Assembly (NCBI GenBank): GCA_963793605.1
Contig: CAWCAH010000003.1
Coordinates: 95,534-159,533, forward strand
From: an uncultured Thermoleophilia bacterium
GTDB lineage: Bacteria > Actinomycetota > Thermoleophilia > UBA2241
Reading direction: 5' to 3'
Length of the DNA: 64,000 nucleotides
The position numbers and the translations under genes are program-made. Of the stretch, positions 22,253-62,485 are shown in pieces (the first letter of the stretch is position 1; each line of letters opens with the position of its first letter). The notes below the pieces were generated by a model that searched no databases, was not told the DNA's origin, and saw only the letters and a program-made list of their open reading frames with translations.

Positions 22253-23689
22253 TCAGGGCGCCGGCACCACCGCGTCGAGCTGCTCGACGATGCCCTCGGG
22301 CAGCGACGCGACCTCGTGCGTCGCCAGGAGCTCGAGCGCCCGCCGGCGCGCCTTCTCGGTCGCGTCCAGCGCGCCGCCCTCGGCCCAGCGGTCGTAGCTG
22401 GCGCGGTTCAGGATCTTGCCGCGCCACTGCTCCTCGCGCAGGTGCTTGCGCGTGTGCCGCTGGCCGAGATAGTCGCCGCCGGGGCCGACGGCCTTGAGCA
22501 CGTCGACGGCCAGCGTCTCGTCGTCGACCTCTATCGGCCTGAGCAGGTGCCGGTTGCGGCTGATGAACTCGGCCACCAGGACGACCTCGGCGAGGGAGCC
22601 GGAGAGGCCGAAGTCCATGTAGCCCACGTCATGGTTGAGGTTGGCGCCCAGCTGCATGGAGAGCTTGGTGATCTCGTCGGCCTCCATGCCCGCCTGGGCG
22701 TCCACCACCTGCGCGTCGGTGTGGCCGCTGAACCCCCAGTTGGGGATGTCCAGCCACTTGGCCATCTCGCACTCCAGCGCGTACGCGCGGATGAACTCCG
22801 GCGAGTTGTACGACGACTGCGACGTCGCCATGTCGAGCGTGTTGGGGCCCTGGCCGATGACGAACGGGGCCCCCGGCGCACGCAGCTGGTGCATCACCAG
22901 GCCGAACAGCGCCTCGGCGATACCGAGGGTGATCTGGCCGGGCGTTGTGATCGGCGCGGTGCCGCCGGCGACCGGCGACGGGCAGTACGTGGACGGCACG
23001 CCCTTGTCGGCGCAGAAGAGCAGCTTGTCGACCGTCTCGTAGGGGTGCTTGAGCGGCGTGACCGGCTGGTTGTACATGATGAAGTACGGCTTGTCGCGAA
23101 GCGCCTGCTCGCCGCCGCGGACGGCGCAGGCCATGCGCCACATGGGCTCTACGGTCTCGACGCCGCCGGCGGTCATCACGAGCGGCTTGGTGGTGGCCGG
23201 GATCATCGCGCGGAACTGCTTGGGGTAGGCCTCCTGCGCGTCCATGCCGTCCGGGTACGCGCCCGACATGACGAAGTCGAGCTCGGGCAGCGAGTCGCAG
23301 AGGCGGGCCGCCTCGGCCACGTCCGCCATCTTGCCGAGGCGGCGCTCCCCGGTCTCGAGGTCGTGCAGGTGCATGACGTCCGAGCCGTTGCCGAAGTAGC
23401 TGCGGCGACCACCGAGGTCCATGGCGGGCTCGCCGGCGCGGTCGTAGACCACGAAGCTCGCCGGCACGGACTCACGCGCCTGCTCGACGAGCGCGGCCGG
23501 CACGTGCACGAGGCCGTCCGCGTCCCTGGTACAGCCGCCGTCCAGCATCACCTGCTCGCCCTCTTCGTGGAGGACGATCATGCCCATCTCCGAGAGGATG
23601 CCGAGGGCCGCGTCGTAGATGCGCCGCTTCTGGTCCTCGTTGAGGAAGCTGACGCGCCCGGCGCCGATCTCCTTGCTGCTGTCTGCCAT
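22253..23689 (-). CDS. MttB-superfamily methyltransferase, non-pyrrolysine paralog (quaternary amine:corrinoid methyltransferase-like)
   Basis: ATG 23689 follows GGGAG. Collinear with the other MttB-family genes here. His occupies the position of the Pyl codon (NWGFSG-H-TDAQVVDAQAG). No internal stop. Confidence 0.85.
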   Translation of the reverse strand: MADSSKEIGAGRVSFLNEDQKRRIYDAALGILSEMGMIVLHEEGEQVMLDGGCTRDADGLVHVPAALVEQARESVPASFVVYDRAGEPAMDLGGRRSYFGNGSDVMHLHDLETGERRLGKMADVAEAARLCDSLPELDFVMSGAYPDGMDAQEAYPKQFRAMIPATTKPLVMTAGGVETVEPMWRMACAVRGGEQALRDKPYFIMYNQPVTPLKHPYETVDKLLFCADKGVPSTYCPSPVAGGTAPITTPGQITLGIAEALFGLVMHQLRAPGAPFVIGQGPNTLDMATSQSSYNSPEFIRAYALECEMAKWLDIPNWGFSGHTDAQVVDAQAGMEADEITKLSMQLGANLNHDVGYMDFGLSGSLAEVVLVAEFISRNRHLLRPIEVDDETLAVDVLKAVGPGGDYLGQRHTRKHLREEQWRGKILNRASYDRWAEGGALDATEKARRRALELLATHEVASLPEGIVEQLDAVVPAP

Positions 23690-23777
23690 GGTCACTCCCG
23701 GAGCGAGATTGCCGACGAGGCGGCCCCGGACTGCTGCGCCGGGGGCCGCCTCGCCGAACACTACACTGTTTGCGGAG

Positions 23778-25247
23778 CTACTTCACTCCGAGTTCGTTCT
23801 CCGCGGCAGCGATAATCGACTTAAGTTCTGCCGAGACGCCCTCCGGCAGCGGCTCCGGCTGGTGCGTCTCCAGGATCCGCCGGGCCTCGGCGAGCGAACG
23901 GTCGTACAGCGTGGTCGACCCGGCGGCGGTCCACTCCTCGCGGACCCGCCGGTCGATGAGCTTCGAGCTCGACTGCCCGCGCATACCGGCGTACGTGTCG
24001 TCGTGCGAGAGGAAGTCCTTGAAGGGACCGATCTCGGCGATGACGTCGACCGACAGCGTCGCGTCCGTGACCGGGATGCCCGGCACGGTGAACTTGACCA
24101 TGCGCGCGAACTCCGCGTCCATGACCAGCTGCGCGTAATCGATGGTGACGCCCGACTCCAGCATCCCCAGCCCGTAGATCAGGTTGGCCCCTGCCAACGC
24201 CGGCAGCAGGCTGGTGATCGTCTTCTCGTGACCGGATTGGGCGTCCGCCACTTTGGAGTCGCCCTACGCACCGGCCACCCAGCTGGGCAGCAGGTAGAAG
24301 CGCGCGAGGCAGGCGACCCCGGCCCCGATCATGCCGCACTCGGGGCTGCCGACCGAGGCGCTGGCGAAGCGCAGGTCCAGCGCGGTCGTCGATGAGCCGT
24401 AGATGACCGGCGCGCCCCTCTTCGTGAGCTGCGCCAGCGTGATGCCGCTGAGCACCTCGGCGTTGTGCGTGACGAGCGTGCCGGCGAGCGAGACGGGAGA
24501 GGAGCCGCCGGCCATCGCCATGCTGAGCACGTTGACGGGGATGCCGGCGCGAGCGCCCTCGATGATGATCTCGCAGGCGTCCTTGACCAGCTTGAGCGGG
24601 CTCACCGGGCAGGTGAGGAAGCTGAGGATCGGGCGGCGGCGCAGCTGCTCCCGCCCCCCGACGATGGCCGCGGCCATGTCGATCATCTTGCGCGCGCAGA
24701 AGCCGCTGAGCGGGCCGATGGTCGCGTGCTTGGTGGTGTTGCTGAAGATCGCCTCGGCGTTGTGCAGCGCGGCCGTCTCCGGCGGCGCGTCGTGGGCGCC
24801 GAGCGGCCGCTCGACCACGTCGATCTCCGGCAGTGCGTCGATGATCTTCGTACAGTCGGCGACGTCCTGCTTGCGGCTCTCGTGCAGCTCGCCGGTGTAC
24901 GGGTCGACGACCTGGATGCCCTCGCCGAAGTTGGTGAAGCCGACCCGGCCGTCCTCGAGCACGACGTCCCTGGCCGGGTCGCGACCGCACAGGACGACGG
25001 TGGAGGGCGCCGAGCGGAGGGCGTCCTCGACGAGGTGCGCCGGCAGGCGCACCACGTTCTGCTCGCCGTCGACCTCGGCGCCGGCCGCCGCGAAGATCTC
25101 ACGGGCCTCGTCGTCCTCGACGAAGACGCCCGTGCGCGACAGCACTTCGAGCGTCGCGCCGTGGATCTCCCGCAGCTCGTCCTCCGTGAACACCTCGAGC
25201 CTGAAACCGCCGCTCTTGCGCGCTCCCGCGCGCGGGTTCCTTCTCAT
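23778..25247 (-). CDS. mttB: Trimethylamine:corrinoid methyltransferase with an in-frame TAG (putative pyrrolysine) at codon 328
   Basis: Track ORFs 24264..25247 and 23778..24251 are in the same frame. They are separated by TAG (plus-strand cta, 24264-24266) plus 4 sense codons. Joined product is 489 aa: ...ARFYLLPSWVAGA-TAG-GDSKVADAQSGHEK.... GAGGAGG RBS before ATG 25247. Confidence 0.85.
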
Positions 25248-25469
25248 CTCGACCTCCTCACCAGTTTGCCGCCGGGCCGTCGGCCCGGCGGCCCATCCGA
25301 CCGCGGTGAGCGGTCAATGCCACCATCATGGGGCAGAAAGCCGCCGGCCGGCTCAGCAAAGGGCGCAGTCTCGCCGGCCGGCGGCCTCCTCATGGCGAGT
25401 GCGGCAGCGCCGCTCGCCGCCCGCCCGCGCTGGCCGGCGCGGACGGGATCTTCTGACGACTTCGGCCGC

Positions 25470-26096
25470 CTACCCCACCAGCTCCTTCGCCCGCTCCACC
25501 GCCATGCCGGCGTTGGCGCCGTAGCCGTCGGCGCCGATCTCCTCGGCCCAGGCGGCCGTGACCGGGGCGCCGCCGACCATCACCTTGACGCTCTCGCGCA
25601 GGCCGGACTCCTTGAGACGCGCGATCGTCTCGGCCATGTGCGGCAGGGTGGTCGTGAGCAGGGCGCTCATGCCGACGATCTGCGGCTGGTGCTCCCGCAC
25701 GGCGGCGACGAAGGCCTCGGCCGTGACCCCGGTGCCGAGGTTGACGACCGTGAAGCCGGCGCCCGAGAGCAGCATGCCGACGAGGTTCTTGCCGATGTCG
25801 TGCAGGTCGCCCTCGACGGTGCCGATGACGACGGTTCCGAAGCCCGAGCCCTCGCCCTCGGCCATCAGCGGGCGCAGCAGGTCGAGGCAGGCCTGCATCA
25901 CCCGCGCGCTGAGCAGCACCTCGGGGATGAAGCACTCGCCCTCGCGCATGCGCGCTCCGACGACGTCCATGCCCGGCAGGAGCGCCTCGTCGAGGATCTC
26001 GCGCGGCGCCGCGCCGCTCGCGACGAGCGCCTGCGTCATCGCCAGGGCGACGGCCTCGTTGCCGTCGATGATGGACTGCTTGAGCTGGTCTTTCAT
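25470..26096 (-). CDS. Corrinoid (B12-binding) protein of the methylamine methyltransferase system (MtbC/MttC-like)
   Basis: 208 aa. B12-binding-2 helical cap followed by the DxHxxG motif (GDLHDIGKN) and SALLTTT...VMVGGAPV. Sits between mtbB and mttB. TAG stop. Confidence 0.9.
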   Translation of the reverse strand: MKDQLKQSIIDGNEAVALAMTQALVASGAAPREILDEALLPGMDVVGARMREGECFIPEVLLSARVMQACLDLLRPLMAEGEGSGFGTVVIGTVEGDLHDIGKNLVGMLLSGAGFTVVNLGTGVTAEAFVAAVREHQPQIVGMSALLTTTLPHMAETIARLKESGLRESVKVMVGGAPVTAAWAEEIGADGYGANAGMAVERAKELVG

Positions 26097-26101
26097 GCCG
26101 A

Positions 26102-27496
26102 TCAGCCTCCCGCCGTGCGTTCCTTGAACTTCTCGACACTGTTGATCGGCACGTCCAGCACACGGGCGATGTTGAACTTCGCCTCGATCTGGTTGGCCTG
26201 CCACGGCTGGCTGATCGCGTAGCTGTGCACGCGACCGAACCCGTGCTCGTTGCGCACGTCGGTCATCACGACCGGGTCGGAGAGATCGAACGGTGTCACG
26301 CCGAGCTTGTCGGCGACGTACTGCTTGGCTTCCTTGAGGCGCATGCCCCGAGTCATCTGCATACGGGCAACCAGGTCTCCGGCTGCGCGAATACCGCCGA
26401 TGCTCGCGGCTTGTGCGTGGGCGTTGTGCATCCCGTGGGGATCGCCCGAGCCCACCTACAACCCGTCGACGTGCAGCAGTTCGACGAAGGACTTCGCCGC
26501 GCGGCAGACAGCGTCGGAAGGCAGATGGACGAACATCGGCACGCCGCCGACGCCCATACCGGCGTTGGGGTGCACGGGGATCGTCGCCACCTCCATGCAC
26601 GGCTTGATGAGAGCGATCGTGCGCGCCATGTTCCAGGCGAGCGACTTGCCCGTGTTGATGTTGACCACAGGGCCGAACATGGTGGCGCCGGCCTCCTGGG
26701 CCAGCAGCAGCTGGTCCTTGGGCCACAGGCCGGCGAGGCGCTTGCCGCCCCACTCGAGCTCACCGTGCATGCCGAGCACGAACTCGCCGGCCATGCCCAG
26801 CTCGACGCCCATGTCCGGGTACTTCTCGCGGATGATCTTGGTGGCGCGCAGGGCGGCGAGGAACTCCGGGTCGCCCGAGGCGCCGGTGGTGTCCCAGTCG
26901 AGCGCGTCGGCTCCGGCTTCCCACTGCGAGTCGGCGAGCTTGACCATGTCGACCACGGCCATCTCGATCGCTTCTTCCTCAGCCTCCCGGGCCTCGGCGA
27001 TCTTGCCGAGCGGGAGCAGCTCGTTCCAGTTGTCGCAGGGGCCGTCGGGCTTGGAGTAGAGGCCGAGGTTGGTCATGACGCCGTACTGCAGCGGCGCGAT
27101 GGTCGCGAGCTGGGCGTCGTGCATGTACTGCGCCTCATAGGCGAGGATCGTGCGTACGACCTTGAGTGAGTAGTCGCCGACGCAGAGCTCGAGCAGGTCG
27201 GCGCCCATCCACTGCTCGTAGCTCTGCAGGTCCTGGATGCGGGTCGCGTGCGTCTTCATGCCGGTGCCGTCGCAGCTGAGGACGATCTCCTCGCCGACGT
27301 CGACGCCGATGAAGCGCAGCGGCGACGCGTAGATCTCGAGCAGGTGGTCGATCTCGTCGTCGGTCAGCAGCGGCACCTTGGCGCGCTTGGCCGCCACCTC
27401 CGAGCCGGCGACGAGATCCGCCCGGATCTCACTGCGCGTCAGCTGCGTGAAGGTACCGTCGCCCATGCGGGTCGGTATCCTGGGCTCGTTCGTCAT
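26102..27496 (-). CDS. mtbB: Dimethylamine:corrinoid methyltransferase with an in-frame TAG (putative pyrrolysine) at codon 347
   Basis: Track ORFs 26456..27553 and 26102..26455 abut in the same frame, separated only by TAG (plus-strand cta, 26456-26458). Joined product is 464 aa: MTNEPRIPTRMGDG...NAGMGVGGVPMF...ELLHVDGL-TAG-VGSGDPHGMH...AAGDLVARMQMTRGMRLKEAKQYVADKLG. It is collinear with MtbB as I remember it. Confidence 0.88.
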
Positions 27497-27565: not shown

Positions 27566-27605
27566 CTGCCACTACACCGCAGCGACGTGGCGAAGTCAAG
27601 CGCGG

Positions 27606-28562
27606 TCAGCAACTGCTCGTCTCGCCCGTCGCGCGCGGCATGGACTCGAGGTACTCCTCGAGAGTCTCGGGGAATCCCGGGGCTCGCAGGTCGGTGCCGC
27701 AAGCCTCCTCGAGGAGCTTCGCGACCATGGCGTACTCGGCCGCGCCGCCGTAGCGGGCGCGGCCGCGGATGAACAGCTGCTCGGCGGTGCCGGCGATGTC
27801 CAGCGGCACGTCGAGGTCGCGGCCGAGCATCATGGCCACGCCGAGGTCCTTGAGGCACAGGTCGAACGAGAAGCCGACATCGTAGCTGCCGCCGAGGATG
27901 GTCGTGCTCTCCGTCTCGAGGATGAAGCTGTCGCCGGAGCTCGCGCGCAGGATCTCCCACGCCAGTCGCAGGTCGATGCCGCTCCGCTTGCACAGCATGA
28001 GCGCCTCCGCCGACGCCGCGATGTGGATGAAGGCCAGCATGTTGGACACGACCTTGATGCTCGACGCCTTGCCCAGTGCGCCCACGTAGAAGACGCTGCC
28101 GCCGACGGCGCGGAACACGCCCTCGTAGGTCCGGAAGACGGCCTCGTCGCCGCCGACGAGCACGGTGATCGTCCCGGAGGCGGCATTGTGCACACCGCCC
28201 GTGACCGGCGCCTCGAGCGTGTGGACGCCGCGCTCGTCCAGCAAGCCGCTGAGACGCTGCAGCTCACGCGGGTCGTTGGTGCTCATCTCGATCCACGCGG
28301 CGCCCGGCGCGAACCCCTCGAGCAGGCCGTTCGCGCCGGTGACGACGTCGGCGACCGCGGCGACGGACGGCAGACAGGTGATGACGGCGTCCGAGGCGCG
28401 GGCGGTCGCGGCCGGCGACGAGGCCCACTCCGCGCCCGACTCCAGGAGCCCCCCGGCCGCCTCACGGTCGAGGTCGTGGACGGTGACGTCGAACCCGGCG
28501 GACAGCAGATTCGCGGCAAGGTGGTGCCCGATGTGCCCAAGGCCGATGCAGCCGATCCTCAT
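27606..28562 (-). CDS. NAD(P)-dependent 3-hydroxyacid dehydrogenase (HIBADH/6PGDH-like family)
   Basis: MRIGCIGLGHIGHHLAANL Rossmann N-terminus. ...LEAPVTGGVHNAASGTITVLVGG...GKASSIKVVSNML is typical of the family. Confidence 0.85.
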   Translation of the reverse strand: MRIGCIGLGHIGHHLAANLLSAGFDVTVHDLDREAAGGLLESGAEWASSPAATARASDAVITCLPSVAAVADVVTGANGLLEGFAPGAAWIEMSTNDPRELQRLSGLLDERGVHTLEAPVTGGVHNAASGTITVLVGGDEAVFRTYEGVFRAVGGSVFYVGALGKASSIKVVSNMLAFIHIAASAEALMLCKRSGIDLRLAWEILRASSGDSFILETESTTILGGSYDVGFSFDLCLKDLGVAMMLGRDLDVPLDIAGTAEQLFIRGRARYGGAAEYAMVAKLLEEACGTDLRAPGFPETLEEYLESMPRATGETSSC

Positions 28563-29077
28563 GGCGTCACGTCCTGAAGCGGCTCCACACCGACGTCCTC
28601 GCCCGCCCACTCGAAGTTGGTCGTGTCCGTGCGCAGGATGTGCCAGGTGTCTGTGTACGCGATGCCCTCGATCTGGTCGAGGTCCTCGTTGAGGAACCTG
28701 TAGAGAGCCTCGTTGTCGGGCAGGTGCACCTCGATGAGGATGTCGAAGGAGCCCGTGGTGTAGCCGATGTAGGCTATGTTCTTCATGGCCGCAAGGCGCT
28801 CGCCCACGCCCCTGCCGTACCCGCGGTTCACGCGGATGCCGACCATCGCGTCCACGGGCAGACCGATCGCCGCCGGGTTCACGCCGGTCCAGGGCAGCAC
28901 GGCTCCCCGCTTGATGAGACGGTCCACACGATTGCGGACCGTCGGCTCCGTGACGCCGATGGAGCGCGCGATGCTGGCGTAGGACCGGCGCGCATTGGGC
29001 CGCAGCAGCTTGAGGATGCGGCGGTCCAGGTCGTCCAGCCGGCTCGTTCCGAAGGGCGCCTGCCCCCATCTGATCAT
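28559..29077 (-). CDS. Lrp/AsnC family transcriptional regulator
   Basis: LDDLDRRILKLLRPNARRSYASIARSIGVTEPTVRNRVDRL HTH followed by an RAM-type domain. ATGA overlap with the downstream dehydrogenase. Confidence 0.85.
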   Translation of the reverse strand: MIRWGQAPFGTSRLDDLDRRILKLLRPNARRSYASIARSIGVTEPTVRNRVDRLIKRGAVLPWTGVNPAAIGLPVDAMVGIRVNRGYGRGVGERLAAMKNIAYIGYTTGSFDILIEVHLPDNEALYRFLNEDLDQIEGIAYTDTWHILRTDTTNFEWAGEDVGVEPLQDVTP

Positions 29078-29154
29078 CGGCCCTCCTGGTCTCGCGACGA
29101 TCGTCGTTGCGGTGATCGCGACGCGGTGAAGCGCCGTGCGACACTGTAGCATTT

Positions 29155-29319: not shown

Positions 29320-30768
29320 ATGAGAGCGAAGACGGTGTGGCTGAGCGAGTCGGAGAAGAGTGCGATCGTCGACGAGGCTCTGGAGTTGCTCGCCGGCGTC
29401 GGCATCCGGCTCGCGGGGTCGTCGGTGCTGCCGCTGCTGTCGGAGCGCGGCGCCACGGTCGACACGGAGACCGGTATCGCGCGCCTGCCGCGCGAGCTCG
29501 TCGAGTGGGCGCTCTCACAATGCCCGCGCGCGGTCCGGCTGGCCGGCGCGACGCCCGACGACGACGTGCTGCTGGCGGAGGGCGAGCCCTTCCACTTCGC
29601 GAACAGCGGCTGCGTCGCCAAGACGCTCGACTTCCGCACCGGCGTCAGACGCGCCAGCACCCTGCAGGACCTGCGCGAGGGCACAGGCCTCCTCGACGAG
29701 CTGTCCGAGCTCGACGTGGTGTGGACCATCGTGAGCGCGTCCGACGTGCCCGTCGAGCAGCGCGAGCTCGTCGAGTACTTCGCGCTGCTCACCGAGACGA
29801 CCAAGCACGTCACCTTCGTGGACCCGCCGGACGACCCGGTCGCGGTCGGCCGCATCTGCGAGGTGCTCGGCGGCGACCTCGTCCGGTTCCGGGAGCGGCC
29901 GAGGATCTCGACCGTGCTCACGGCGGCGTCTCCCCTGCAGATCGACGGCCCCGCACTGGACATCCACATCGCCCTGGCCCGTCACGGTGTGCCCGTCCAC
30001 GCGTACTCCATGTCCATCGCCGGCGCCACCTCGCCGGTGACCCTGGCAGGGTCGGTCGTGCAGGGCGTGGCCGAGTTCCTGGGAGCCGCGACGGCGCTGC
30101 AGGTCGCGGCGCCCGGCGCCCGCCTCATCTTCTGTTTCGGCTCGGGTGTGCTGGACATGCTGCGCACGACGTTCTCCATGGGCAACATCGAGAGCGCGCA
30201 GATGGGCGCCATGGCCACCGAGGTCGGTCACTACCTCGGCGTGCCGACGCTCAACCCGGGGATGTCGACGGACGCAAAGCACGCCGGCCTGCAGGCGGGC
30301 TACGAGAAGGCCCTGAAGCTCGGCGCGGTCTGCACGGCGAGTCCGGACATCGTCACCGGGTGGGGGCTGATGGACTCGCACAACACCATGTTCCTGCCGC
30401 AGTCGGTGGTGGACAACGAGATGGCGGCCATGGTCCGGCGGCTCAACGCCGAGGTCGAGGTGTCTCACACCACGCTGGCGGCCGACTCTATCGGCAGGGT
30501 GGGTCCGGGCGGAGGGTTCCTCGGCGAGCGCGAGACCGCCAAGCGGATCCGGGCCGGGGAGCACTACCTGCCGACGGTGTCGAACCGCCTGTCCTTCGAG
30601 AAGTGGGCGGAGGAGGGCGCGACCGAGAACGACACCGCAGAGGCCCAGGTCGAGAGCCTTCTCGCCCGGCACCTGGAGCAGCCCTGTCTGGCTGCGGACC
30701 AGATCGACGACCTCGCCGCGGTCTGCGGCGTCGACGAGGCCAGCGTGCGCCGCGCCCGGCGCGACTGA
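29320..30768 (+). CDS. MttB-superfamily methyltransferase, non-pyrrolysine paralog
   Basis: 482 aa, collinear with the MttB family. Ser occupies the Pyl-equivalent position (NPGM-S-TDAKHAGLQAG). Confidence 0.85.
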   Translation: MRAKTVWLSESEKSAIVDEALELLAGVGIRLAGSSVLPLLSERGATVDTETGIARLPRELVEWALSQCPRAVRLAGATPDDDVLLAEGEPFHFANSGCVAKTLDFRTGVRRASTLQDLREGTGLLDELSELDVVWTIVSASDVPVEQRELVEYFALLTETTKHVTFVDPPDDPVAVGRICEVLGGDLVRFRERPRISTVLTAASPLQIDGPALDIHIALARHGVPVHAYSMSIAGATSPVTLAGSVVQGVAEFLGAATALQVAAPGARLIFCFGSGVLDMLRTTFSMGNIESAQMGAMATEVGHYLGVPTLNPGMSTDAKHAGLQAGYEKALKLGAVCTASPDIVTGWGLMDSHNTMFLPQSVVDNEMAAMVRRLNAEVEVSHTTLAADSIGRVGPGGGFLGERETAKRIRAGEHYLPTVSNRLSFEKWAEEGATENDTAEAQVESLLARHLEQPCLAADQIDDLAAVCGVDEASVRRARRD

Positions 30769-30822: not shown

Positions 30823-31743
30823 ATGACGCTCAAGATCGGCTACATCGGGCTCGGCGCCCTCGGCAGGCACCTCGCGGGAAGCCTGCTCAAGGCCGGCTTC
30901 CCTGTGACCGTCTACGACATCGACAGGACATGCGCCATCGACCTGGAGAAGAACGGCGCCGTGTGCGCCGACTCCATCCTGGACGTGGCCCGGGCATCCG
31001 ACACCGTCATCACGTGCCTGCCGTCGCCCGAGGCGGTCGACGCCGTCGTGGGCGGCGCCGGCGGCGTGCTGGACGGCCTGGCCGCAGGCAGCACCTGGAT
31101 CGAGATGAGCACCAACGACGCGAGCAACATCCAGCGACTCGCGGCGCAGGGCGCCGAGAAGGGCATCGACACGCTCGAGTCGCCGGTCACGGGCGGCGTG
31201 CATCGCGCTGCCGCCGGCATGATCACCGTCCTCGTCGGCGGCAAGCCGGAGGTGTTCGAGAAGCACAAGCCGGCCTTCGACGCCATGGGCGGCAAGGTCT
31301 TCTACGTCGGCGAGCTTGGCAAGGCCTCGGTGATCAAGGTCATCACCAACATGCTCGCCTTCATCCACCTGGTGGCCGACGGCGAGGCGCTCATGCTGGC
31401 CAAGAAGGGCGGCGTCGACCTCGGGCTGGCCTGGGAGATCATCAAGGCCAGCTCCGGCAACAGCTTCGTGCACGAGACCGAGGGTCAGCTGATCCTCAAC
31501 GGCAGCTACAACATCAACTTCACCATGGACCTGGCCCGCAAGGACCTGCACTTCGCGCACATGATGGGTCGCGAGTGGGGCGTTCCTCTGGACCTCGCCG
31601 GCCTCACCGAGCAGACCTTCGTGCGCGGCCGTGCCACCTACGGCGGCGACGCGCAGTCGACGATGATCGTCAAGCTCCTCGAGGACGCCGTCGGTACCGA
31701 CCTCCGCGCCCCCGGGTTCCCCGACGAGCTCGAGCCCGAGTGA
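30823..31743 (+). CDS. NAD(P)-dependent 3-hydroxyacid dehydrogenase (HIBADH-like), paralog of 27606-28562
   Basis: 306 aa. About half of its residues are identical to the 27606-28562 product by eye (IGYIGLGALGRHLA..., ESPVTGGVHRAAAGMITVLVGG, GKASVIKVITNMLAFIH). Confidence 0.85.
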   Translation: MTLKIGYIGLGALGRHLAGSLLKAGFPVTVYDIDRTCAIDLEKNGAVCADSILDVARASDTVITCLPSPEAVDAVVGGAGGVLDGLAAGSTWIEMSTNDASNIQRLAAQGAEKGIDTLESPVTGGVHRAAAGMITVLVGGKPEVFEKHKPAFDAMGGKVFYVGELGKASVIKVITNMLAFIHLVADGEALMLAKKGGVDLGLAWEIIKASSGNSFVHETEGQLILNGSYNINFTMDLARKDLHFAHMMGREWGVPLDLAGLTEQTFVRGRATYGGDAQSTMIVKLLEDAVGTDLRAPGFPDELEPE

Positions 31744-31886
31744 GATAGCGTCGGCGCCCAGCGCGCCAGAAATACAGCGAGCGAGCCGCCCGGCGGTACA
31801 ATGTTCGCCGGGCGGCTTGACTTGACGAACAACCGGCCGAATACTGCGGGCCCGAAGGCCCGCGGACAGCACCAAAGGAGACACCC

Positions 31887-32667
31887 GTGACCGAGATCGG
31901 CGACTTCGCGCTGGACTACTTCTCCCTCAAGGGGACGCACTGCCATCGTCACCGGCGGCAACACGGGTCTCGGCCAGGCGTTCGCGGTGGCGCTCGCGGC
32001 CGCCGGGGCCAACCTCTTCGTGCCCAGCATCATGGACGACGACGGCACCACCGGCCCCCTGGTAGAGGAGCGCGGCGGCCGCTACGAGTTCGTCAAGGCC
32101 GACGTGACCGCGCCGGGCGCCCCGGCCGAGATCGTCGCCGCGTGCGTCGAGCGGCTCGGCTCGCTCGACATCCTCGTCAACAGCGCCGGCATCTGCCCGC
32201 TGGCGAGCGTGCTCGAGTTCGGCCGCGCGCAGTGGGACGCCACCGTGGCCGTGAACCTCACGGCCGCCTTCGAGATGGCCTACGAGTCCGCCAAGGTCAT
32301 GGTCCCGCAGGGCTCCGGCAAGATCATCAACATCTGCTCGCTGTTCTCGTTCCTGGGCGGCCGCTGGTCGTCCGCGTACGCGGCCACCAAGCATGGTCTG
32401 GCCGGCTTCACCAAGGCCTACGCCGACGAGCTGGCCGAGTCCGGCATCCAGGTCAACGGCATCGCGCCCGGCTACTACGCCACGGAGATCACGACGGCCA
32501 CACGCAGCGACCCGGTGACCAACCAGCGCGTGCTGGACCACATCCCGGCCGCGCGCTGGGGCGACCCCGCCGACCTCATGGGCGCCACCGTGTTCCTGGC
32601 GAGCAAGGCCTCCGACTACGTCAACGGCCACGTCCTGACCGTCGACGGCGGCTACCTCGTCCGCTAG
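31887..32667 (+). CDS. Short-chain dehydrogenase/reductase (KduD/FabG-like); one frame break near 31935
   Basis: GTG 31887 follows AAAGGAG. VTEIGDFALDYFSLKG is followed, after one extra base, by RTAIVTGGNTGLGQAFAVALAAAGA (TGxxxGxG), then NSAG, YAATKHGL (YxxxK) and PGYYATE. TAG stop. Confidence 0.8.
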
Positions 32668-32685
32668 GGCGGGGAGGATACGGAC

Positions 32686-34116
32686 ATGGCCGGCAAGTAC
32701 CTCATCGGCATCGACAACGGCACGCAGAGCACCAAGGTGGTCATCTACGACCTCGACGGCAACGTGGTCTGCGAGGCACGGCGCACGCTGCTCCCCATGG
32801 AGCACCCCCAGCCGGGGTACGCGGTCCACCCCGACGACGACCTCTGGGAGTCCATCGTCGCGGCCAGCCGCGAGGCGATGACGCAGTTCCCCGGCGACCC
32901 CGAGGACATCCTCGGCGTCGGACTGTGCACCATCCGCTGCTGCAAGACGTTCCTCAAGGCCGACGGCAGCCTGCTCGAGCCCGTCATGAGCTGGATGGAC
33001 ACGCGCGCCTACCAGCCCTGGCTCCCGGACGACCCCGAGCTCGCCTGGGCCACCACCTCGTCCGGCTACATCACCCACCGGTTCACCGGGGAGTTCCGCG
33101 ACAGCGCCGCCAACAACATCATCCTGCAGTGGCCCATCGACACCGACACGTGGCAGTGGGACCCGGCGCTGTTCCCGGAGTTCAACATGCGCCCGGAGCT
33201 GCTCGTGGAACTGCAGATGCCGGGCGACGTCGCCGGGTACGTCACGGCGGAGGCGGCGGCCGCGACCGGCATCCCGGAGGGCCTGCCGGTCGTCACCACC
33301 GCCAACGACAAGGCCGTCGAGGCGCTCGGCTCCGGCTCGCTCGACGAGCGCACGGCGCTCATCTCCCTGGGCACCTACATCGCCTCCATGGTGCACGGCC
33401 ACAAGAACCGTCAGGACGCGGTCGACTTCTGGACCAACTTCGCCTGCGTCCCGAGCCGCTACCTCTACGAGAGCGGCGGCGTGCGCCGCGGCATGTGGAC
33501 GCTCAGCTGGTTCCTCGACCTGCTCGGGCCGGAGCTCGCCGCGGCCGCGGCGAGCCAGGAGACCTCGCGCGAGGTGTACCTGGAGCGCGAGGCCGAGCTG
33601 GTCCCCGCAGGGAGTTGCGGCCTCATGACGGTGCTGGACTGGCTCGCCCCGACGGACAAGCCCTTCCGCAAGGGCGAGATCATCGGCTTCGACGCGCGCC
33701 ACACCCGGGGCCATGTCTACCGGTCCATCCTCGAGGCGATCGCCCTGACGATGAAGCAGAACGTGGACGCCATGTGCGCCGAGCTGGGCATCGACCTGCG
33801 CGAGATCGTCGTCTCCGGCGGCGGCGCCAACAGCCCGCTCTTCATGCACATCTTCGCCGACGTGTTCGGCGTGCCGGCCTCGCGCAACATCGGCAGCAGC
33901 GGCGCCAGCCTGGGCGCCGCCATCTGCGCCGCCGTCGCCACCGGCGTGTACCCGGACTTCGAGACCGCCTCGGCCGCCATGCGCAGCAGCCGCGAGTCGT
34001 TCGCCCCGGGGCTCGAGAACCACGACGTGTACCGGCGCATGAACGAGAGCGTGTACCGCGCCATCCACGACGCCACCGACCCCATTCTCGAGCAGTCCTT
34101 CACCATCTTCCACTGA
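32686..34116 (+). CDS. FGGY-family carbohydrate kinase (xylulokinase/glycerol kinase-like)
   Basis: 476 aa. YLIGIDNGTQSTKVVIYD N-terminal phosphate-1 motif and the C-terminal VSGGGANSPLFMHIFADVFG motif. Confidence 0.85.
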   Translation: MAGKYLIGIDNGTQSTKVVIYDLDGNVVCEARRTLLPMEHPQPGYAVHPDDDLWESIVAASREAMTQFPGDPEDILGVGLCTIRCCKTFLKADGSLLEPVMSWMDTRAYQPWLPDDPELAWATTSSGYITHRFTGEFRDSAANNIILQWPIDTDTWQWDPALFPEFNMRPELLVELQMPGDVAGYVTAEAAAATGIPEGLPVVTTANDKAVEALGSGSLDERTALISLGTYIASMVHGHKNRQDAVDFWTNFACVPSRYLYESGGVRRGMWTLSWFLDLLGPELAAAAASQETSREVYLEREAELVPAGSCGLMTVLDWLAPTDKPFRKGEIIGFDARHTRGHVYRSILEAIALTMKQNVDAMCAELGIDLREIVVSGGGANSPLFMHIFADVFGVPASRNIGSSGASLGAAICAAVATGVYPDFETASAAMRSSRESFAPGLENHDVYRRMNESVYRAIHDATDPILEQSFTIFH

Positions 34117-34153
34117 CTTCCAGACCCCCACGGACACGCAAAGGAAGCCCGCC

Positions 34154-35597: not shown

Positions 35598-35700
35598 CGC
35601 CGACGTAGGATGGAGCCGGGCCGGCCGACGGCCGGCCCGTGAGCACCGCCGGCGCGCTCATCGTCCACCGGCGGCCCATGCCCGCAAGCGAGGAGCGCGG

Positions 35701-37552: not shown

Positions 37553-37733
37553 GTCTCCGATCAAGCCTATCTCCGTACGGACGGGCTCCCGTGCGCACAA
37601 TCCGAATCGTTTCGTGCCACTATGCGGCAGATTGTTCACTTCTGCGCTTGACTGAGCGAACATCAGACTGAATACTCCGGAGTCGATCGCCGCGACCAGC
37701 CGGCGGCGCACCACGGCTCCCGGAGGGGGAAGC

Positions 37734-38198: not shown

Positions 38199-38247
38199 CC
38201 CGCGGCGCAGTCGCCGCGACGTGATCCGTCCCCACAGGAGGTCCCCC

Positions 38248-39095: not shown

Positions 39096-39166
39096 GGGCT
39101 CGGCGCCGGAAGGACGTGTGATGCACTCGCTCTGCTGAAGACCTCACGCCGCCGCAGGGCGGCTTC

Positions 39167-40376: not shown

Positions 40377-40400
40377 GTCCCCCCTGAAGGAGTCGTCACC

Positions 40401-46002: not shown

Positions 46003-46052
46003 GCCCGGCGCGCCCGGCTCTGCGCGGCGCACCGGACGGAGGAGGGGGAGCC

Positions 46053-57851: not shown

Positions 57852-58970
57852 TTGAACATCACCGACATCGCCATGACTCCTCTCTGGCTGCCGTTCAAGG
57901 AGCCGTACCACTGGGCTGGGCGGGTCGACCTCGGCGCGGCGGTCGTGCTCGTCGAGGTCTTCACCGACGAGGGCCTGGTCGGAGTCGGGGAGTCGACTGC
58001 GGGGATCCCCGCGGACAGCACGGTAGCCGCGCTGAAGAGCGTGGCCCCCCTGCTGATCGGCGAACCCGTGTTCGACATCGAGAGACTGGTGACCAAGGCG
58101 CGCTTCCTGGGGAGCTTCAACCACGCGCCTCGAGCGGCCAACCTTGCTCTTGCCGGGTTCGAGATGGCGCTCTGGGACGTGCTCGGTAAGGCCGCCGGCT
58201 GGCCCGTGTTCCGGCTGCTGGGGGGCGCGGTGCGCGATGACGTCGACTACTTCGGGTTCGTCCAGGGCGACACCACGGAGGAACTCGTGGAAGATGCCCG
58301 TGACTTGGCGGAGGCGGGGTACTCCGTGATCTACCTCAAGGTCGGCCGCGGCTCGGAGGCCGACCTGCGCAACACGGCGGCGGTGCGCGAGGCCATCGGC
58401 GATCGCCGCCTCCGCCTGGATGCCAACGGGGCATGGGGGGTGACCGAGGCGATCCACATGATCGGGCGCCTCGCGCCCTTCGGGCCCGAGTGGATCGAGC
58501 AGCCGACGCCGCCCACGAGCATCGCCGCGATGCGCCAGGTGAAGGACGGTGTGGCCGTCCCCATCGCCGCCGACCAGGCGGCGTTCACTCCCTCCGACGT
58601 CTACGAGATCTGCCGCCAGCGCGCCGCCGACGCCATCGTGCTCTCGACGCACGAGGCGGGCGGCCTGCACGCCTTCGCAAAAGCCGCGGCTATCGCTGAG
58701 GCCGCCGGCGTGCCGATCTGCCTGCACGGCCAGAACGTCTCGAGCATCACTGACGCGGCCCAGCACCACCTCGGCTTGAGCACCGCCAACCTCAGCGACG
58801 GGAACCAGATCATGCACCAACTCATCGCCGAGGACCTCGTGGTCTCTCCTGATCTGAGTCCCGCCGGTGGAAAAATAGGAATGCTTGAGTCTCCCGGCCT
58901 GGGCGTGGAACTGGACCGCGACGCCGTCGCCCGGGCCGCTGAAAGGCATGCGAAGGAGAAGGGACTATGA
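57852..58970 (+). CDS. Mandelate racemase / muconate lactonizing enzyme family protein (enolase superfamily)
   Basis: 372 aa. TTG start follows GAGGAGG. LVGVGES, FEMALWDVLGK, YLKVG, LRLDANGAW, WIEQP, PIAADQ barrel motifs. Confidence 0.85.
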   Translation: MNITDIAMTPLWLPFKEPYHWAGRVDLGAAVVLVEVFTDEGLVGVGESTAGIPADSTVAALKSVAPLLIGEPVFDIERLVTKARFLGSFNHAPRAANLALAGFEMALWDVLGKAAGWPVFRLLGGAVRDDVDYFGFVQGDTTEELVEDARDLAEAGYSVIYLKVGRGSEADLRNTAAVREAIGDRRLRLDANGAWGVTEAIHMIGRLAPFGPEWIEQPTPPTSIAAMRQVKDGVAVPIAADQAAFTPSDVYEICRQRAADAIVLSTHEAGGLHAFAKAAAIAEAAGVPICLHGQNVSSITDAAQHHLGLSTANLSDGNQIMHQLIAEDLVVSPDLSPAGGKIGMLESPGLGVELDRDAVARAAERHAKEKGL

Positions 58971-59974
58971 GCGTGCTCATCGCAGACCAGGACCTCGTCA
59001 CCGAACTCCTGCCCATGGAGGACGCCATCGGCGTGATGAGGCGCGCCTTGACCCTGCTCGCAGAGGGCGATGTGATGATGCCGCTGCGCTCGATGCTCCA
59101 CCTGCCGAAGGGCGGCGCCGTCATGGGCCTCATGCCGTCGTACCTCGGTGGCCTCGAAGCCGTCGGCGTCAAAGTCATAGCCGAGTTCCCGACCAACTTC
59201 GGCAGCGAGTACGACACCCACCAGGGAGTCGTACTGTTCTTCGATACAGAGAGGGGCTTGCTGCGTGCCATGGTGGATGCGACGGCCGTCACCGCCATCC
59301 GCACGGCGGCCGTGAGCGGCCTGGTCACCGATCTGCTCGCGAATCCCGACGCCGGGGATCTGGCGATCATCGGCGCAGGCACTCAGGCGCACACGCATCT
59401 GCAGGCGATGACGGCGGTGCGTCCCGTCCGCAGAGTGCGCGTGTATTCCGTGCCCGGCGAGAGCGCGGCGACGTTCGCGGACCGCGAGTCTCGGCGCACG
59501 GGACTCAAGATCGAAGTCGCCGCCAGCGCCGAGCAGGCAATCGAAGGCGCCGACCTCATCTGCACGGTCACGACCTCCCACGAACCCGTCGTGCATGGCG
59601 CCTGGGTCAGCCCGGGCGCTCACATCAACGCCGTCGGCGCCTACAACCCGGCGACGCGCGAGCTGGATTCGGCACTCGTGGCGAAGTCGCGCCTCTACGC
59701 CGACCGGCGCGAGTCGCTGCTCAACGAAGCCGGTGAGTTCCTCATCCCCAAGGGCGAGGGGCTCTTCGGCGACGAGCACATCGTCGGGGAGATCGGCGAG
59801 GTCCTCACCGGCAAGGCCCGCGCGCGCACGTCACCACAGGAGATCACGTTGTTCAAGTCGCTCGGGATCGCCATCGAGGACCTGGCGGCCGCCCACTACG
59901 TGTACGAGGCGGCCAAGGCCAGGGGCCTCGGCCAGTGGGTCGAGATCGGCGGCAGGCACTTCGGGGCGGGGTGA
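58967..59974 (+). CDS. Ornithine cyclodeaminase / mu-crystallin family protein (ketimine or pyrroline-2-carboxylate reductase-like)
   Basis: 335 aa. ATGA overlap with the upstream gene. ...TAIRTAAVSGLVTDLLA...LAIIGAGTQAHTHLQAM...INAVGAY... family motifs. Confidence 0.85.
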   Translation: MSVLIADQDLVTELLPMEDAIGVMRRALTLLAEGDVMMPLRSMLHLPKGGAVMGLMPSYLGGLEAVGVKVIAEFPTNFGSEYDTHQGVVLFFDTERGLLRAMVDATAVTAIRTAAVSGLVTDLLANPDAGDLAIIGAGTQAHTHLQAMTAVRPVRRVRVYSVPGESAATFADRESRRTGLKIEVAASAEQAIEGADLICTVTTSHEPVVHGAWVSPGAHINAVGAYNPATRELDSALVAKSRLYADRRESLLNEAGEFLIPKGEGLFGDEHIVGEIGEVLTGKARARTSPQEITLFKSLGIAIEDLAAAHYVYEAAKARGLGQWVEIGGRHFGAG

Positions 59975-59990
59975 GCGTCGCTCGGGGGCC

Positions 59991-60857
59991 TCAGACGTCC
60001 CCGTCAGCGACGCGTCGAGTGTCTCGCGCTGCCGGGGCAGCCCGATCCGCAGGGTCTGGTTCCATGATTGGCGAGGCGTTCTCGCGGCTTGCGTTCGCGT
60101 GGGCCACCACGCCGTCGAGCAGGTCCTCGAGGTCCTGCTCCGACCACTCGAGCGCCTCTCTCATGAGCAGGCCGGCCCGCTCTGGATCGCTGTCTGCGAT
60201 CGCCTCGGCGATGGGCCGGTGGAAGTAGGCGAAATCCCGGTCCTGGATCGGCAGGGAGTCCCACGGCAGGCGAGAGTAGATCGCGTCGTACCAGGCGAAG
60301 AAGGCCGTCCGGGTGCGCTGGACGGCGTCGAGCATGAGCCAGTTGCCCGACGCCGCGGCAACGGCGGCATGGAACCGCGAATCGATGCTGCGCCAGGAGC
60401 GGAAGCTCCAAGCCTGCTCGTCCGCGATGGCGGTGATCATCGCGACGTCCTCGGCGGTCGCCCGCCGGGCAGCCAAGGACGCCGCGGCGGGCTCGATGGC
60501 GAGACGGAACTCATAGCTTGCCCTGATCTCGCGATGGCTTGCCAGGATCTCCTCCGACATGCGCTTCGGCTGGACCGGCCTGTCCGAGACGACGGTTCCG
60601 CCGCTGCGTCCGAGTCGCGTCTCCACGAGCCCCTCATCGTTCAGGGTCCGCATCGCCTGACGGATCGAGTCGCGACCGACGCGCAGCGTCTCGGCCAGCT
60701 CCCTCTCCGAGGGAAGACGCTCCCCCGGCGAGAGGGCCCCCAGTGCGATAAGCCTGCGCAGCGAGTCCGCCACGAGCATCGACGACGAGCGAGGCCGCAG
60801 CGGTCCAAGGTCGAGTGCCGGATTCACGCCGGCGACGCTCTCCCCTTCACCTCTCAT
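59991..60857 (-). CDS. GntR family regulator, FadR subfamily (FCD domain)
   Basis: LPSERELAETLRVGRDSIRQAMRTLNDEGLVE HTH followed by an all-helical FCD-like domain. An alternative start is the internal ATG at 60779. Confidence 0.8.
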   Translation of the reverse strand: MRGEGESVAGVNPALDLGPLRPRSSSMLVADSLRRLIALGALSPGERLPSERELAETLRVGRDSIRQAMRTLNDEGLVETRLGRSGGTVVSDRPVQPKRMSEEILASHREIRASYEFRLAIEPAAASLAARRATAEDVAMITAIADEQAWSFRSWRSIDSRFHAAVAAASGNWLMLDAVQRTRTAFFAWYDAIYSRLPWDSLPIQDRDFAYFHRPIAEAIADSDPERAGLLMREALEWSEQDLEDLLDGVVAHANASRENASPIMEPDPADRAAPAARDTRRVADGDV

Positions 60858-61015: not shown

Positions 61016-61028
61016 GGTCCATTTATGA
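61016..61028. promoter_or_regulatory. Second copy of GGTCCATTTATGA in the FadR-type GntR / MttB divergent spacer
   Basis: Exact 13-mer match to 57731-57743. Preceded by GGACC (61004-61008), which forms GGACC-N7-GGTCC. Lies 63 nt upstream of GTG 61091. Confidence 0.5.
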
Positions 61029-61090
61029 TGAGGGTGCGCGACGGTGACCCGTGAGCAGTCCTCGATGATCATGACAGGTGGAGGTAGACG

Positions 61091-62485
61091 GTGGGCAAGC
61101 CGGCCATCCGGGTGTGGGACACGGAGGAGTGCGAGCTCGTACACGAAGCGACCTTGCGTGTCCTCTCGGAGTGCGGGGTCGAAGTGATGTGGGGACCGGC
61201 GCTCCGACGCTTCGCGGAGGCGGGCGCGAAGATCGACGGCAACCGGGTCAGGCTGAGCGCGGAGCTCGTGAACGAGGCCCTTGCGTCCGCCCCTCGCACG
61301 TGGTCTGTGAGATCGAGGGGCCGTGACGAAGTGCTGGAGCTCAAGGACGGCCCCACGTACTTCGGCTCGGGATCCGACTGCCTGTACATCACCGACCCGG
61401 ACACGGGCCGACGGCGCAGAGCCGTCGTGGACGACATCGAGGCCCTGGCGAGCCTGTGCGAGAAGCTCGAGAACATCGACTTCGTCATGTCGATGGGATT
61501 CCCCGAGAACGTGCCGCCCGAGTCGGAGGTGCTTCACCAGCAGGTCGCCCTGCTCAAAGGCACGCGCAAGCCACTTCTCATCGTGCCCCGGGACGGTCAC
61601 ACCCTGGCTACGATGAAGGCGATGGCCGAGGCCTGCGGCGGCGGTGACAGCCTCATCGTCTACGGCATGCCGTCGCCGCCGCTGATGCACGACGAGTTCG
61701 CCCTCTCCAAGATCGAGACGTGCGCCGAACTGATGATCCCGCTCGTCTACGCGCCCGCGCCGACGGCGGGCTCCACCGCACCCGCCTCCATCGCCGCCGT
61801 CGTGGTCACCGGGAACGCGGAGGTGCTGAGCGGCCTCGTCCTGCATCAACTCGTGAACCCCGGAGCTCCGTTCGTCTACGGAGCCGGGTGCGACACGCTG
61901 GACATGCGGACGATGGTCAATCCCTACGTCTCGCCGGAATGGTCCATGGGCTGCCAGGCGGGCTGTGATCTGGCTCGCTTCTACTCGCTGCCGAGCTTCT
62001 CCTACGGCGGGTATTCCGATGCCAAGATGCTGGACGAACAGTGGTCGGCCGAGACCGCGATGACCGCCGTCATGGGCGCCCTCTCGCGGGGTACGCTCCT
62101 GCACGACGTCGGCTATCTCGAGATGGGGATGCAGACGTCCTTCGAGTCCATCGTGCTCGGCGATGAGCTCGCCGGCTTCGCCAAGGCGTGCCTGCGCGAT
62201 ATCGCCGTGGACGACGAGGCTCTCGCCGTCGACGAGATCATCGCGGTCGGGCCCGGCGGCAACCACCTGCCTCGTCGCTACACCCGCAAGCACTATCGTG
62301 AGTTCTGGACGCCCAGGCTGCTCGACAAGGCCCCGCACGATCGCTGGCAGAGCAACGGCGCGACATCGCTGAAGCAGCGCGTCCAGCAACGCGTCGCCGA
62401 GCTACGGGCGGAGCCGCCTCGCTTCGTCCTCGACGACCACGCCCTCGGGGATATTCAAAGCCTGCTGCGAAGCGCCGCTGTGTGA
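61091..62485 (+). CDS. MttB-superfamily methyltransferase, non-pyrrolysine paralog
   Basis: 464 aa. GTG start follows GGTGGAGG. Collinear with the MttB family. Tyr occupies the Pyl-equivalent position (SYGG-Y-SDAKMLDEQWS). Confidence 0.85.
   Translation: MGKPAIRVWDTEECELVHEATLRVLSECGVEVMWGPALRRFAEAGAKIDGNRVRLSAELVNEALASAPRTWSVRSRGRDEVLELKDGPTYFGSGSDCLYITDPDTGRRRRAVVDDIEALASLCEKLENIDFVMSMGFPENVPPESEVLHQQVALLKGTRKPLLIVPRDGHTLATMKAMAEACGGGDSLIVYGMPSPPLMHDEFALSKIETCAELMIPLVYAPAPTAGSTAPASIAAVVVTGNAEVLSGLVLHQLVNPGAPFVYGAGCDTLDMRTMVNPYVSPEWSMGCQAGCDLARFYSLPSFSYGGYSDAKMLDEQWSAETAMTAVMGALSRGTLLHDVGYLEMGMQTSFESIVLGDELAGFAKACLRDIAVDDEALAVDEIIAVGPGGNHLPRRYTRKHYREFWTPRLLDKAPHDRWQSNGATSLKQRVQQRVAELRAEPPRFVLDDHALGDIQSLLRSAAV

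Follow-up and report, generated by a model that had tools for sequence, protein, structure and literature searches.

A putative methylated-amine island in a Thermoleophilia bacterium joins a pyrrolysine methylamine operon to five divergent, pyrrolysine-free MttB paralogs

The subject of this study is a 64,000-nucleotide stretch of DNA from an uncultured soil bacterium of the class Thermoleophilia (Actinomycetota; assembly GCA_963793605.1, contig CAWCAH010000003.1, positions 95,534 to 159,533), hereafter called the window, and in particular its genes of the MttB (trimethylamine:corrinoid methyltransferase) superfamily. The G+C content of the window is about 70%. Six open reading frames (ORFs) within 40 kb match the Pfam family PF06253 (MTTB) end to end, from about position 30 to position 490 of a 500-position profile, with scores of 237 to 345 bits, all of which exceed the gathering score of 25 bits; the six superfamily genes that had been proposed in a first-pass annotation are borne out by these matches, each at the place given for it. 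One of the six is a trimethylamine methyltransferase gene of the pyrrolysine (Pyl) type, mttB (23778-25247, minus strand). The other five are Pyl-free and are named here after the residue that they carry at the alignment column occupied by Pyl: the His type (His323; 22253-23689, minus strand, 259.7 bits), the Ser type (Ser316; 29320-30768, plus strand, 237 bits), the Thr type (Thr324; 40401-41855, plus strand, 252.7 bits), the MtgB-like Val type (Val313; 41940-43346, plus strand, 345 bits) and the Tyr type (Tyr308; 61091-62485, plus strand, 262.7 bits). What might these five enzymes act on, and how much does the residue at the Pyl column tell us about it?

The gene at 23778-25247 is a genuine Pyl-type MttB and the only one of the six that belongs to the equivalog family TIGR02369, on which it scores 741.8 bits against a cut-off of 525. 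Its single in-frame stop codon, TAG at 24264-24266, aligns exactly on the 'X' (Pyl334) of M. barkeri MttB in structure 7xcl (phmmer, E 5e-124), and the site reads WVAGA-TAG-GDSKVADAQSGHEKT in the window and YVAGS-O-SDAKVPDDQAGHEKT in the archaeal protein. The two proteins (7XCL/7XCM for that of M. barkeri) are about 48% identical over their full length and both are accompanied by an adjoining corrinoid protein and a Pyl-type mtbB, whereas the host is a methanogen in the one case and a bacterium in the other. The equivalents of Gly110 and Tyr364, the MttB residues that activate Pyl (PMC9842639), are both kept in the window gene. TAG is kept in all 27 mttB orthologs whose alignments run through the site. 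A second recoded gene, which was absent from the first-pass annotation, lies in the same operon: the dimethylamine methyltransferase gene mtbB (26102-27490, minus strand; PF09505, 546 bits) has an in-frame TAG at 26456-26458 in the context DGL-TAG-VGSGDP, and this codon is kept in 22 of 22 orthologs. Between the two recoded genes lies the gene for the sole corrinoid protein of the window (25470-26096, minus strand; PF02310 and PF02607), which is MttC/MtbC/MtgC-like and whose best NCBIfam models, MtgC_2 and MtbC, are both matched below their cut-offs. The operon begins with a gene for an Lrp/AsnC regulator (28559-29152, minus strand; PF13404 and PF01037), the position of which is kept in related loci, and continues with a 3-hydroxyisobutyrate-dehydrogenase-like (HIBDH-like) gene (27606-28520, minus strand; PF03446 and PF14833), which is found between the Lrp gene and mtbB in only some of those loci. 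Its final gene is the His-type paralog, 88 bp downstream of the Pyl mttB.

Some of this has precedents. Ellenbogen et al. (2023; PMC10805028) reported expression of mttB and mtbB with encoded Pyl for Actinobacteriota metagenome-assembled genomes (MAGs) of the genera Bog-752 and RBG-16-64-13, PylRS has been found in two Actinobacteria (Guo et al., 2022), and E. limosum encodes 42 non-Pyl MttB paralogs (PMC12155760). Pyl-type mttB and mtbB in this phylum, Pyl-free variants and the presence of many paralogs in one genome are already published and are not new here; the five paralogs are new, uncharacterised members of a known superfamily, and no new kind of system is involved.

The Pyl column was placed by a MAFFT alignment of the six genes with M. 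barkeri MttB, D. hafniense MtgB (2qne/9yce) and the S. meliloti protein 4yyc. The residues that the first-pass annotation had read at this column were recovered, and the misplacement of the column that it had envisaged as a source of error was not seen: the codon is CAC (22721-22723) in the His gene, TCG (30265-30267) in the Ser gene, ACC (41370-41372) in the Thr gene, GTG (42876-42878) in the Val gene and TAT (62012-62014) in the Tyr gene, and both MtgB and 4yyc carry Leu. The conserved D(S/A)(K/Q) said to follow the column holds in general, in the form (T/S/G)D(A/S)(K/Q), but not in the Val gene, which reads TDAH. TCG and TAT are one step from TAG, and the non-Pyl genes were considered as recent TAG-to-sense derivatives; this was rejected because identity between the paralogs and the Pyl gene is only 25-32%, a distance that also puts the codon-level history beyond recovery.

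The five non-Pyl paralogs are far apart from one another and from every enzyme with which they were compared. Pairwise identity among them is 24-49%, the His and Thr types being the closest (49%), and identity to MtgB, MttB and 4yyc is 21-34%, so that the tight clustering with a single characterised enzyme that would have spoken against the first-pass annotation was not found among these three. Common to them and M. barkeri MttB are the PF06253 fold family and, following the Pyl column, an (S/T)D(S/A)K motif; they differ from that protein in having no TAG, in carrying S or G at the Gly110 column and His or Thr in place of Tyr364, and in their scores on TIGR02369 (His 318.5, Ser 311.5, Thr 348.5, Val 257.9 and Tyr 321.0 bits, or 258-349 against the cut-off of 525). 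When NCBIfam was searched for subfamily models of non-Pyl MttB proteins, TIGR02369 alone was matched.

The differences extend into the predicted substrate pocket. In MtgB, docking, a substrate-bound structure and mutagenesis have shown that glycine betaine is contacted by Y97 and F356 through cation-pi interactions and by R312 and H348 at the carboxylate, and R312 is conserved in MtcB, MtpB, MthB and MtyB (PMC13080624). MtgB and MttB use the same cavity, because positions 97 and 348 of MtgB are the homologs of Gly110 and Tyr364 of MttB (PMC9842639). At positions 97, 312, 317 (the Pyl column), 348 and 356 of MtgB, the residues are Y R L H F in MtgB itself, G Y Pyl Y G in M. barkeri MttB and G W Pyl Y G in the Pyl gene of the window, and among the paralogs they are S W H H G in the His type, S W T H G in the Thr type, S F Y H G in the Tyr type, G L S T H in the Ser type and S R V H F in the Val type. 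A better separator of the paralogs than the Pyl column is Arg312, which is kept in the Val type only, with W in the His and Thr types, F in the Tyr type and L in the Ser type. In searches with the Val, Tyr and Thr types, the best 120 matches of which were used, all of them environmental orthologs with generic names, all 113 sequences of the Thr family have W at position 312 and all 114 of the Tyr family have F. The Val type keeps three of the four MtgB contacts (R312, H348 and F356) and has lost the aromatic residue at position 97; of 113 Val-family members, 103 have Ser there. The four-contact pattern is absent from the other four types (His, S W H G; Ser, G L T H; Thr, S W H G; Tyr, S F H G). 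Since these pocket residues differ, the His, Thr and Tyr types, which share one pocket, and the Ser type, which has a third, would bind their substrates in another way than every characterised member does. There are 16,036 clusters at 50% identity that match a profile built from the five, and among the best 147 representatives, which were examined, position 312 is F, W or Y in 118 and R in 6. The pocket class with an aromatic residue at 312, His348 and Gly356 has no characterised member.

Of the five paralogs, the Val type is the closest to MtgB (D. hafniense, 2QNE/9YCE). The two are 34% identical, which is not orthology, and the Val type has an aliphatic Val at the position of Leu317 (L or I in orthologs); Y97 of MtgB, needed for a low Km, is Ser. 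A BetI-type TetR regulator and alcohol and aldehyde oxidoreductases near the Val gene fit choline or betaine metabolism. Neither R312 nor F356 occurs in the other four types. The S. meliloti protein 4YYC, a putative trimethylamine methyltransferase and non-Pyl MttB homolog of unassigned function, has Leu at the Pyl column, keeps R312 and H348 and is 32% identical to the Val type, and at most 27% identical to the other window paralogs. The E. limosum enzymes MtpB (proline betaine), MtcB (carnitine), MtyB (gamma-butyrobetaine) and MthB (in the pathway of choline demethylation) are likewise non-Pyl and multi-copy, each with its own substrate, and the association of the Tyr type with an MR/MLE enzyme, a protein like pyrroline-2-carboxylate reductase and PutA recalls proline-type betaine catabolism. 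They are set apart by their published description, in which all keep R312 (PMC13080624), whereas four of the five window paralogs do not, and most of the window paralogs have no adjoining dedicated corrinoid protein, MT2 or activase.

The genes around the paralogs are arranged in modules. The first-pass annotation had stated that each paralog has its own regulator; the regulators that it named (Lrp, Lrp, TetR and GntR-FCD) all exist, but they are not one per gene, the six genes forming four modules with four regulators. Module A is the operon described above, Lrp-[HIBDH]-mtbB-[corrinoid]-mttB(Pyl)-mttB(His), convergent with a gene for an AAA ATPase. About 25 species-level Thermoleophilia MAG loci, most of them without the corrinoid gene, keep the order MtbB-MttB(Pyl)-MttB(His). 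Module B starts with the Ser gene, which is divergent from the same Lrp gene that heads the Pyl operon and is followed in the same direction (30823-37655, plus strand, Pfam assignments here and below) by genes for a HIBDH-like protein, SDR, FGGY kinase, FAD-linked (GlcD-like) oxidase, ETF beta and ETF alpha; the order Ser-HIBDH-SDR-FGGY-GlcD-EtfB is kept in about 25 MAG loci, the same ones as for Module A.

Module C opens with a stretch at 37734-40387 (plus strand) that codes for a second Lrp (37734-38198), a PanB-like hydroxymethyltransferase and an aminotransferase, the last two frameshifted so that their matches are split over two frames. The Thr and Val genes follow, separated by a gap of 85 bp. 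Convergent with the Val gene is that for the TetR regulator with a BetI-type C-terminal domain (43381-44061, minus strand; PF00440 and PF13977), which is divergent from genes for an aldehyde:ferredoxin oxidoreductase (AFOR, frameshifted) and a zinc alcohol dehydrogenase (44226-47204, plus strand). In a related locus whose Thr ortholog is 73% identical (L065; such labels denote related loci), a TetR gene is divergent from a run coding for Thr type, corrinoid protein, Val type, zinc alcohol dehydrogenase and ABC transporter, with a Pyl mttB next door, and loci of Desulfobacterales have AFOR upstream of a Thr-like gene. Module D consists of genes for an MR/MLE enolase-superfamily enzyme and an OCD/mu-crystallin enzyme (57852-59974, plus strand), for a GntR regulator with an FCD domain (FadR type; 59991-60857, minus strand; PF00392 and PF07729) divergent from the Tyr gene, and for the Tyr type, followed from 62624 by an SBP_bac_5 gene. 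The arrangement of the GntR gene is the same in L066, which has GntR-FCD, MR/MLE, mttB(Tyr) and SBP5. In the PDB, the product of the OCD gene matches delta1-pyrroline-2-carboxylate reductase best (6t3e, E 6.5e-68). Orthologs of the MR/MLE gene at 74-77% identity stand directly upstream of His-type genes in seven other loci. Each non-Pyl paralog lies in a different gene module conserved in related genomes, the Thr and Val genes both within Module C.

Several side observations on these loci may be added. Outside the window, the MR/MLE gene (57852-58970) recurs directly upstream of His- or Tyr-type genes in L030, L031, L033, L034, L036, L038, L045 and L066; its best PDB match, 2pgw, has no assigned function. 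From this pairing, one may suspect that a chiral carboxylate substrate, for instance an amino-acid betaine, is racemised or epimerised. The AAA ATPase convergent with the His gene (20756-22246, plus strand) is a single-domain, CDC48/FtsH-like protein of 496 residues. As at least 15 related MAG loci have it in the same position beside the His paralog, it may be linked functionally to the methyltransferase operon. A second methylamine locus, with the order MtbB-corrinoid-MttB(Ser type, 52% identical)-MttB(Pyl), is found in L002 and L003. Its corrinoid gene (L002:10000-10628 and L003:10000-10628) is 99.5-99.8% identical in DNA to window positions 25469-26097, and the neighbouring mttB only 76%; gene conversion, recent transfer and chimeric assembly are possible explanations. 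Downstream of the His-type gene in two further loci (L013:12409-13782 and L023:3810-5189) is a second mtbB paralog, 49% identical to that of the window, which is likewise interrupted in frame by a stop codon at the Pyl site (DGL*VGTGD). At L067:8001-15654, a member of the Thr family (57% identity) is accompanied by genes for a ferredoxin, a protein of the aromatic amino-acid ammonia-lyase family, a pyridoxal-phosphate (PLP) decarboxylase and another MttB, which may hint at a histidine-betaine-type substrate in that sublineage.

The His paralog has orthologs at 74-95% identity in about 45 MAGs whose labels read Thermoleophilia, Actinomycetes or Actinomycetota, including bog_752 and palsa_645, many of which are of the long-contig type, and relatives at 43-46% identity occur in Desulfobacterales. 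Two loci in MAGs labelled Deltaproteobacteria and Alphaproteobacteria (L011 and L059) carry the Thermoleophilia-type operon with a His-type gene about 88% identical, for which a binning or labelling error is probably a better account than transfer.

The explanation that we favour, with a probability of roughly 0.65, is that the window holds a methylated-amine island in which a Pyl-dependent operon for dimethylamine and trimethylamine is combined with old non-Pyl subfamilies that act on different substrates, the Pyl column being one of several differences in their pockets. The operon Lrp-(HIBDH)-mtbB-mttC-mttB would supply true Pyl enzymes for the two methylamines. The five non-Pyl paralogs would represent four or five old subfamilies, each in its own conserved module, and each would be an MT1-type TIM-barrel enzyme that binds a different methylated amine in the cavity occupied by Pyl in MttB and methylates the Co(I) of a corrinoid protein with one of the amine's N-methyl groups. 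For the Val type, which keeps the carboxylate-binding Arg312, His348 and Phe356 of MtgB, the substrate is probably an acidic betaine. The BetI-like TetR, the alcohol dehydrogenase and AFOR would be in keeping with glycine betaine or a betaine derived from choline. Gene context would by the same token give Module C a role with choline or acidic betaines and Module D one with proline-type betaines. The proposal of the first-pass annotation that the five have five different substrates fares well in part: distinct substrates are plausible because these are old divergent subfamilies, each in a module conserved across dozens of Thermoleophilia MAGs. The step by which it got there, from the residue at the Pyl column, is weak since the column is variable. 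It is reasonable to expect different substrates from the divergence, the composition of the pockets and the conserved context taken together, rather than from the Pyl column alone.

Several points weigh against this explanation. What indicates Pyl decoding in the host is the conservation of TAG in two genes alone: a scan with ARAGORN gave no tRNA for the window and, for 52 related loci, none of the Pyl type, and no pyl cassette was seen in either, in a search for Pyl machinery that covered 64 kb of this genome and the 10-kb flanks of the related loci. The window contains one corrinoid protein (25470-26096), inside the Pyl operon, and no MT2 or RamA-type activase was seen among the Pfam-scanned ORFs or the gene calls of the sibling contigs described below, so that the complement seen falls short of a three-component pathway (MT1 with corrinoid protein, MT2 and activase). 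The activities of all five subfamilies are predictions. The His and Thr types could share a substrate class, as they are identical at the other four pocket positions (S, W, H and G) and 49% identical overall and may therefore be related in function. Finally, MR/MLE enzymes act on carboxylates, and their pairing with the His and Tyr types argues against reading the loss of Arg312 as a sign of a non-acidic substrate.

How does the Pyl column behave within each subfamily? It is His in 44 of 45 His-type orthologs; Ser in 23 of 23 Ser-type orthologs, through three synonymous codons, as well as in the 52%-identical paralog of L002; and Thr in 106 and Ser in 7 of the 113 Thr-family homologs, which go down to 57% identity. 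The 113 Val-family homologs (66-100% identity) have Leu in 53, Val in 36 and Ile in 24, and R312, H348 and F356 are invariant in them while the column drifts, so that the Val of the window is a conservative variant of Leu317 of MtgB. In the Tyr family (114 homologs, 54-100% identity) the column is Tyr at 70% identity or more, Tyr or Phe at 60-70%, and Met, Asp, Val, Cys, His, Asn or Thr at 50-60%; by entropy it is the 13th of 466 positions, inside an otherwise invariant motif, and it is largely fixed within clusters of at least 80% identity (M, Y, D/N, H, C or F). The residue at the column is specific to the family in four of the five (in the Tyr family at 60% identity and above), whereas in the Val lineage the site is aliphatic and drifts. 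Across the superfamily, the best 147 of the 16,036 representatives have C in 58, A in 20, S in 12, G in 9, T, L in 7 each, I, Y and N in 5 each and H, V and M in 4 each, besides others, Cys being the commonest by far. As five random members of these 147 all differ at the column in 17% of draws, the presence of five different residues in five deeply diverged paralogs is real and not beyond chance expectation.

These figures bear directly on the strong form of the first-pass annotation, in which the Pyl-column residue is a substrate-contact switch and its five states stand for five quaternary amines. The constancy of the column within the His, Ser and Thr families speaks for a switch, as does the pattern in the Tyr family, where a position ranking 13th of 466 in variability within an invariant motif, yet fixed within clusters of at least 80% identity, looks like a specificity site; moreover, the side chain at the Pyl position of MttB points into the active-site cavity (PMC9842639). 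The drift between Leu, Val and Ile in the Val family while the other pocket positions stay unchanged, and the 17% of random draws, tell against it. The contacts reported for MtgB are Y97, R312, H348 and F356, and residue 317 is not mentioned in that study (PMC13080624). Positions 97, 312, 348 and 356 also differ among the paralogs, so that an effect of the column could not be told from one of the other pocket residues. A switch of this kind is accordingly doubtful to us, and the residue is better described as a family-specific cavity trait, one of several pocket differences, than as a demonstrated specificity switch.

Another possibility, which we consider improbable, is that some of the non-Pyl paralogs are not substrate-demethylating MT1 enzymes and instead unload the methyl-corrinoid to an acceptor, or that simple, secondary or tertiary amines are their substrates and Pyl is dispensable: with the His type, for example, the cascade could go on from trimethylamine and dimethylamine to tetramethylammonium, choline or monomethylamine, and the Thr and Val pair could work around one corrinoid protein. 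It would account for the conservation of MtbB(Pyl)-MttB(Pyl)-MttB(His) in about 25 genomes without mtmB, for the Ser-type gene inside the second Pyl operon of L002, for the order Thr-corrinoid-Val in L065 and for the finding of no classical MT2 in the window, in Pfam-scanned ORFs and sibling gene calls; the His, Thr and Tyr pockets, aromatic at 312 and Gly at 356, are also nearer to that of Pyl-MttB than to that of MtgB. Gene context, however, is the whole basis of the idea, and His-type orthologs at 74-78% identity that lie outside Pyl operons and beside MR/MLE genes point to a chiral carboxylate as substrate. To our knowledge, no member of the MttB family acts as an MT2.

The state of the assembly has to be considered before the island is taken at face value. 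In the Val ORF as recorded, about 47 residues are misread and the barrel is scrambled, the stretch at about 42366-42512 being out of frame; the Val at the Pyl column is outside it. The phase of GC3 (G+C at third codon positions) jumps from about 42360 to 42480, and the alternative frame gives KVVAHLHATSSDKNARFTVTSLEELKVATDVLEILYGADWH, a good MttB sequence. Compared with two sibling contigs from ENA metagenome assemblies (L005 and L006), the gene has three extra G at 42366, 42373 and 42512, the removal of which yields a protein of 467 residues, 463 of them identical to P0001. Indels also affect the genes for the PanB-like protein (38221-39004), the aminotransferase (39122-40387) and AFOR (44226-46002), which are intact in L005 (281, 417 and 591 residues, respectively), and the stored Thr product P0241 is one residue off the Thr paralog of the window, to which it is 99% identical. 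The indels look like long-read assembly errors rather than biology. A programmed double frameshift in the Val gene, or its pseudogenisation, was considered and rejected, because the siblings differ at the indel sites and the orthologs keep a plain frame. That part of the array is decaying, with the frameshifted Val paralog and its neighbours as pseudogenes and the functional repertoire overstated, is very unlikely: three single-nucleotide insertions scrambling 47 residues of the Val barrel and the splitting of the PanB-like, aminotransferase and AFOR genes would suit it, but the sibling contigs, which stem from the same population and are 99.0-99.7% identical to the window, carry their indels in other places (the Val gene is intact in L005 and truncated in L006), the records are long contigs of the long-read MAG type whose differences from the window include 11-48 gap openings per 15-20 kb, and Val orthologs from independent assemblies retain the unshifted frame.

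Farther upstream in the window, at 9732-16734 on the plus strand, is a run of redox genes that code for an HdrD/CCG-like protein, an HdrA-like protein (FAD and Fe-S), a Fer4_22 protein and a protein with FAD_binding_6, NAD_binding_1 and DHODB_Fe-S domains, and at 2-7898 are PutA, an M20 peptidase and an MFS transporter. Together with AFOR, these genes point to an anaerobic or facultative lifestyle.

What would a methylated-amine island of the favoured kind mean for the family? As far as we know, most of the thousands of Pyl-free MttB homologs have no known substrate. The non-Pyl MttB cases that have been solved each opened a new anaerobic route by which precursors of trimethylamine are removed without release of trimethylamine. 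With the island, there are five candidates from Thermoleophilia that abound in soil and peat, and their conserved neighbourhoods narrow the search for substrates. It is conceivable, though unlikely, that the His, Thr and Tyr types stand for a large uncharacterised pocket class (about 118 of the 147 nearest representatives) that demethylates a substrate type new to corrinoid methyltransferases; tertiary N-methyl amino acids, tetramethylammonium or choline-type cations and D/L stereoisomers of betaines may be named, quite speculatively, as candidates. In Thermoleophilia, genes of the class with Ser97, an aromatic residue at 312, His348 and Gly356 sit in Pyl methylamine operons or beside MR/MLE genes, and if the idea were true, a Pyl-independent chemistry would complement the Pyl enzymes within the same operon. 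The most useful lead is this pocket without Arg312 (aromatic-312/His348/Gly356), along with the conserved association of its genes with Pyl operons and with an MR/MLE enzyme.

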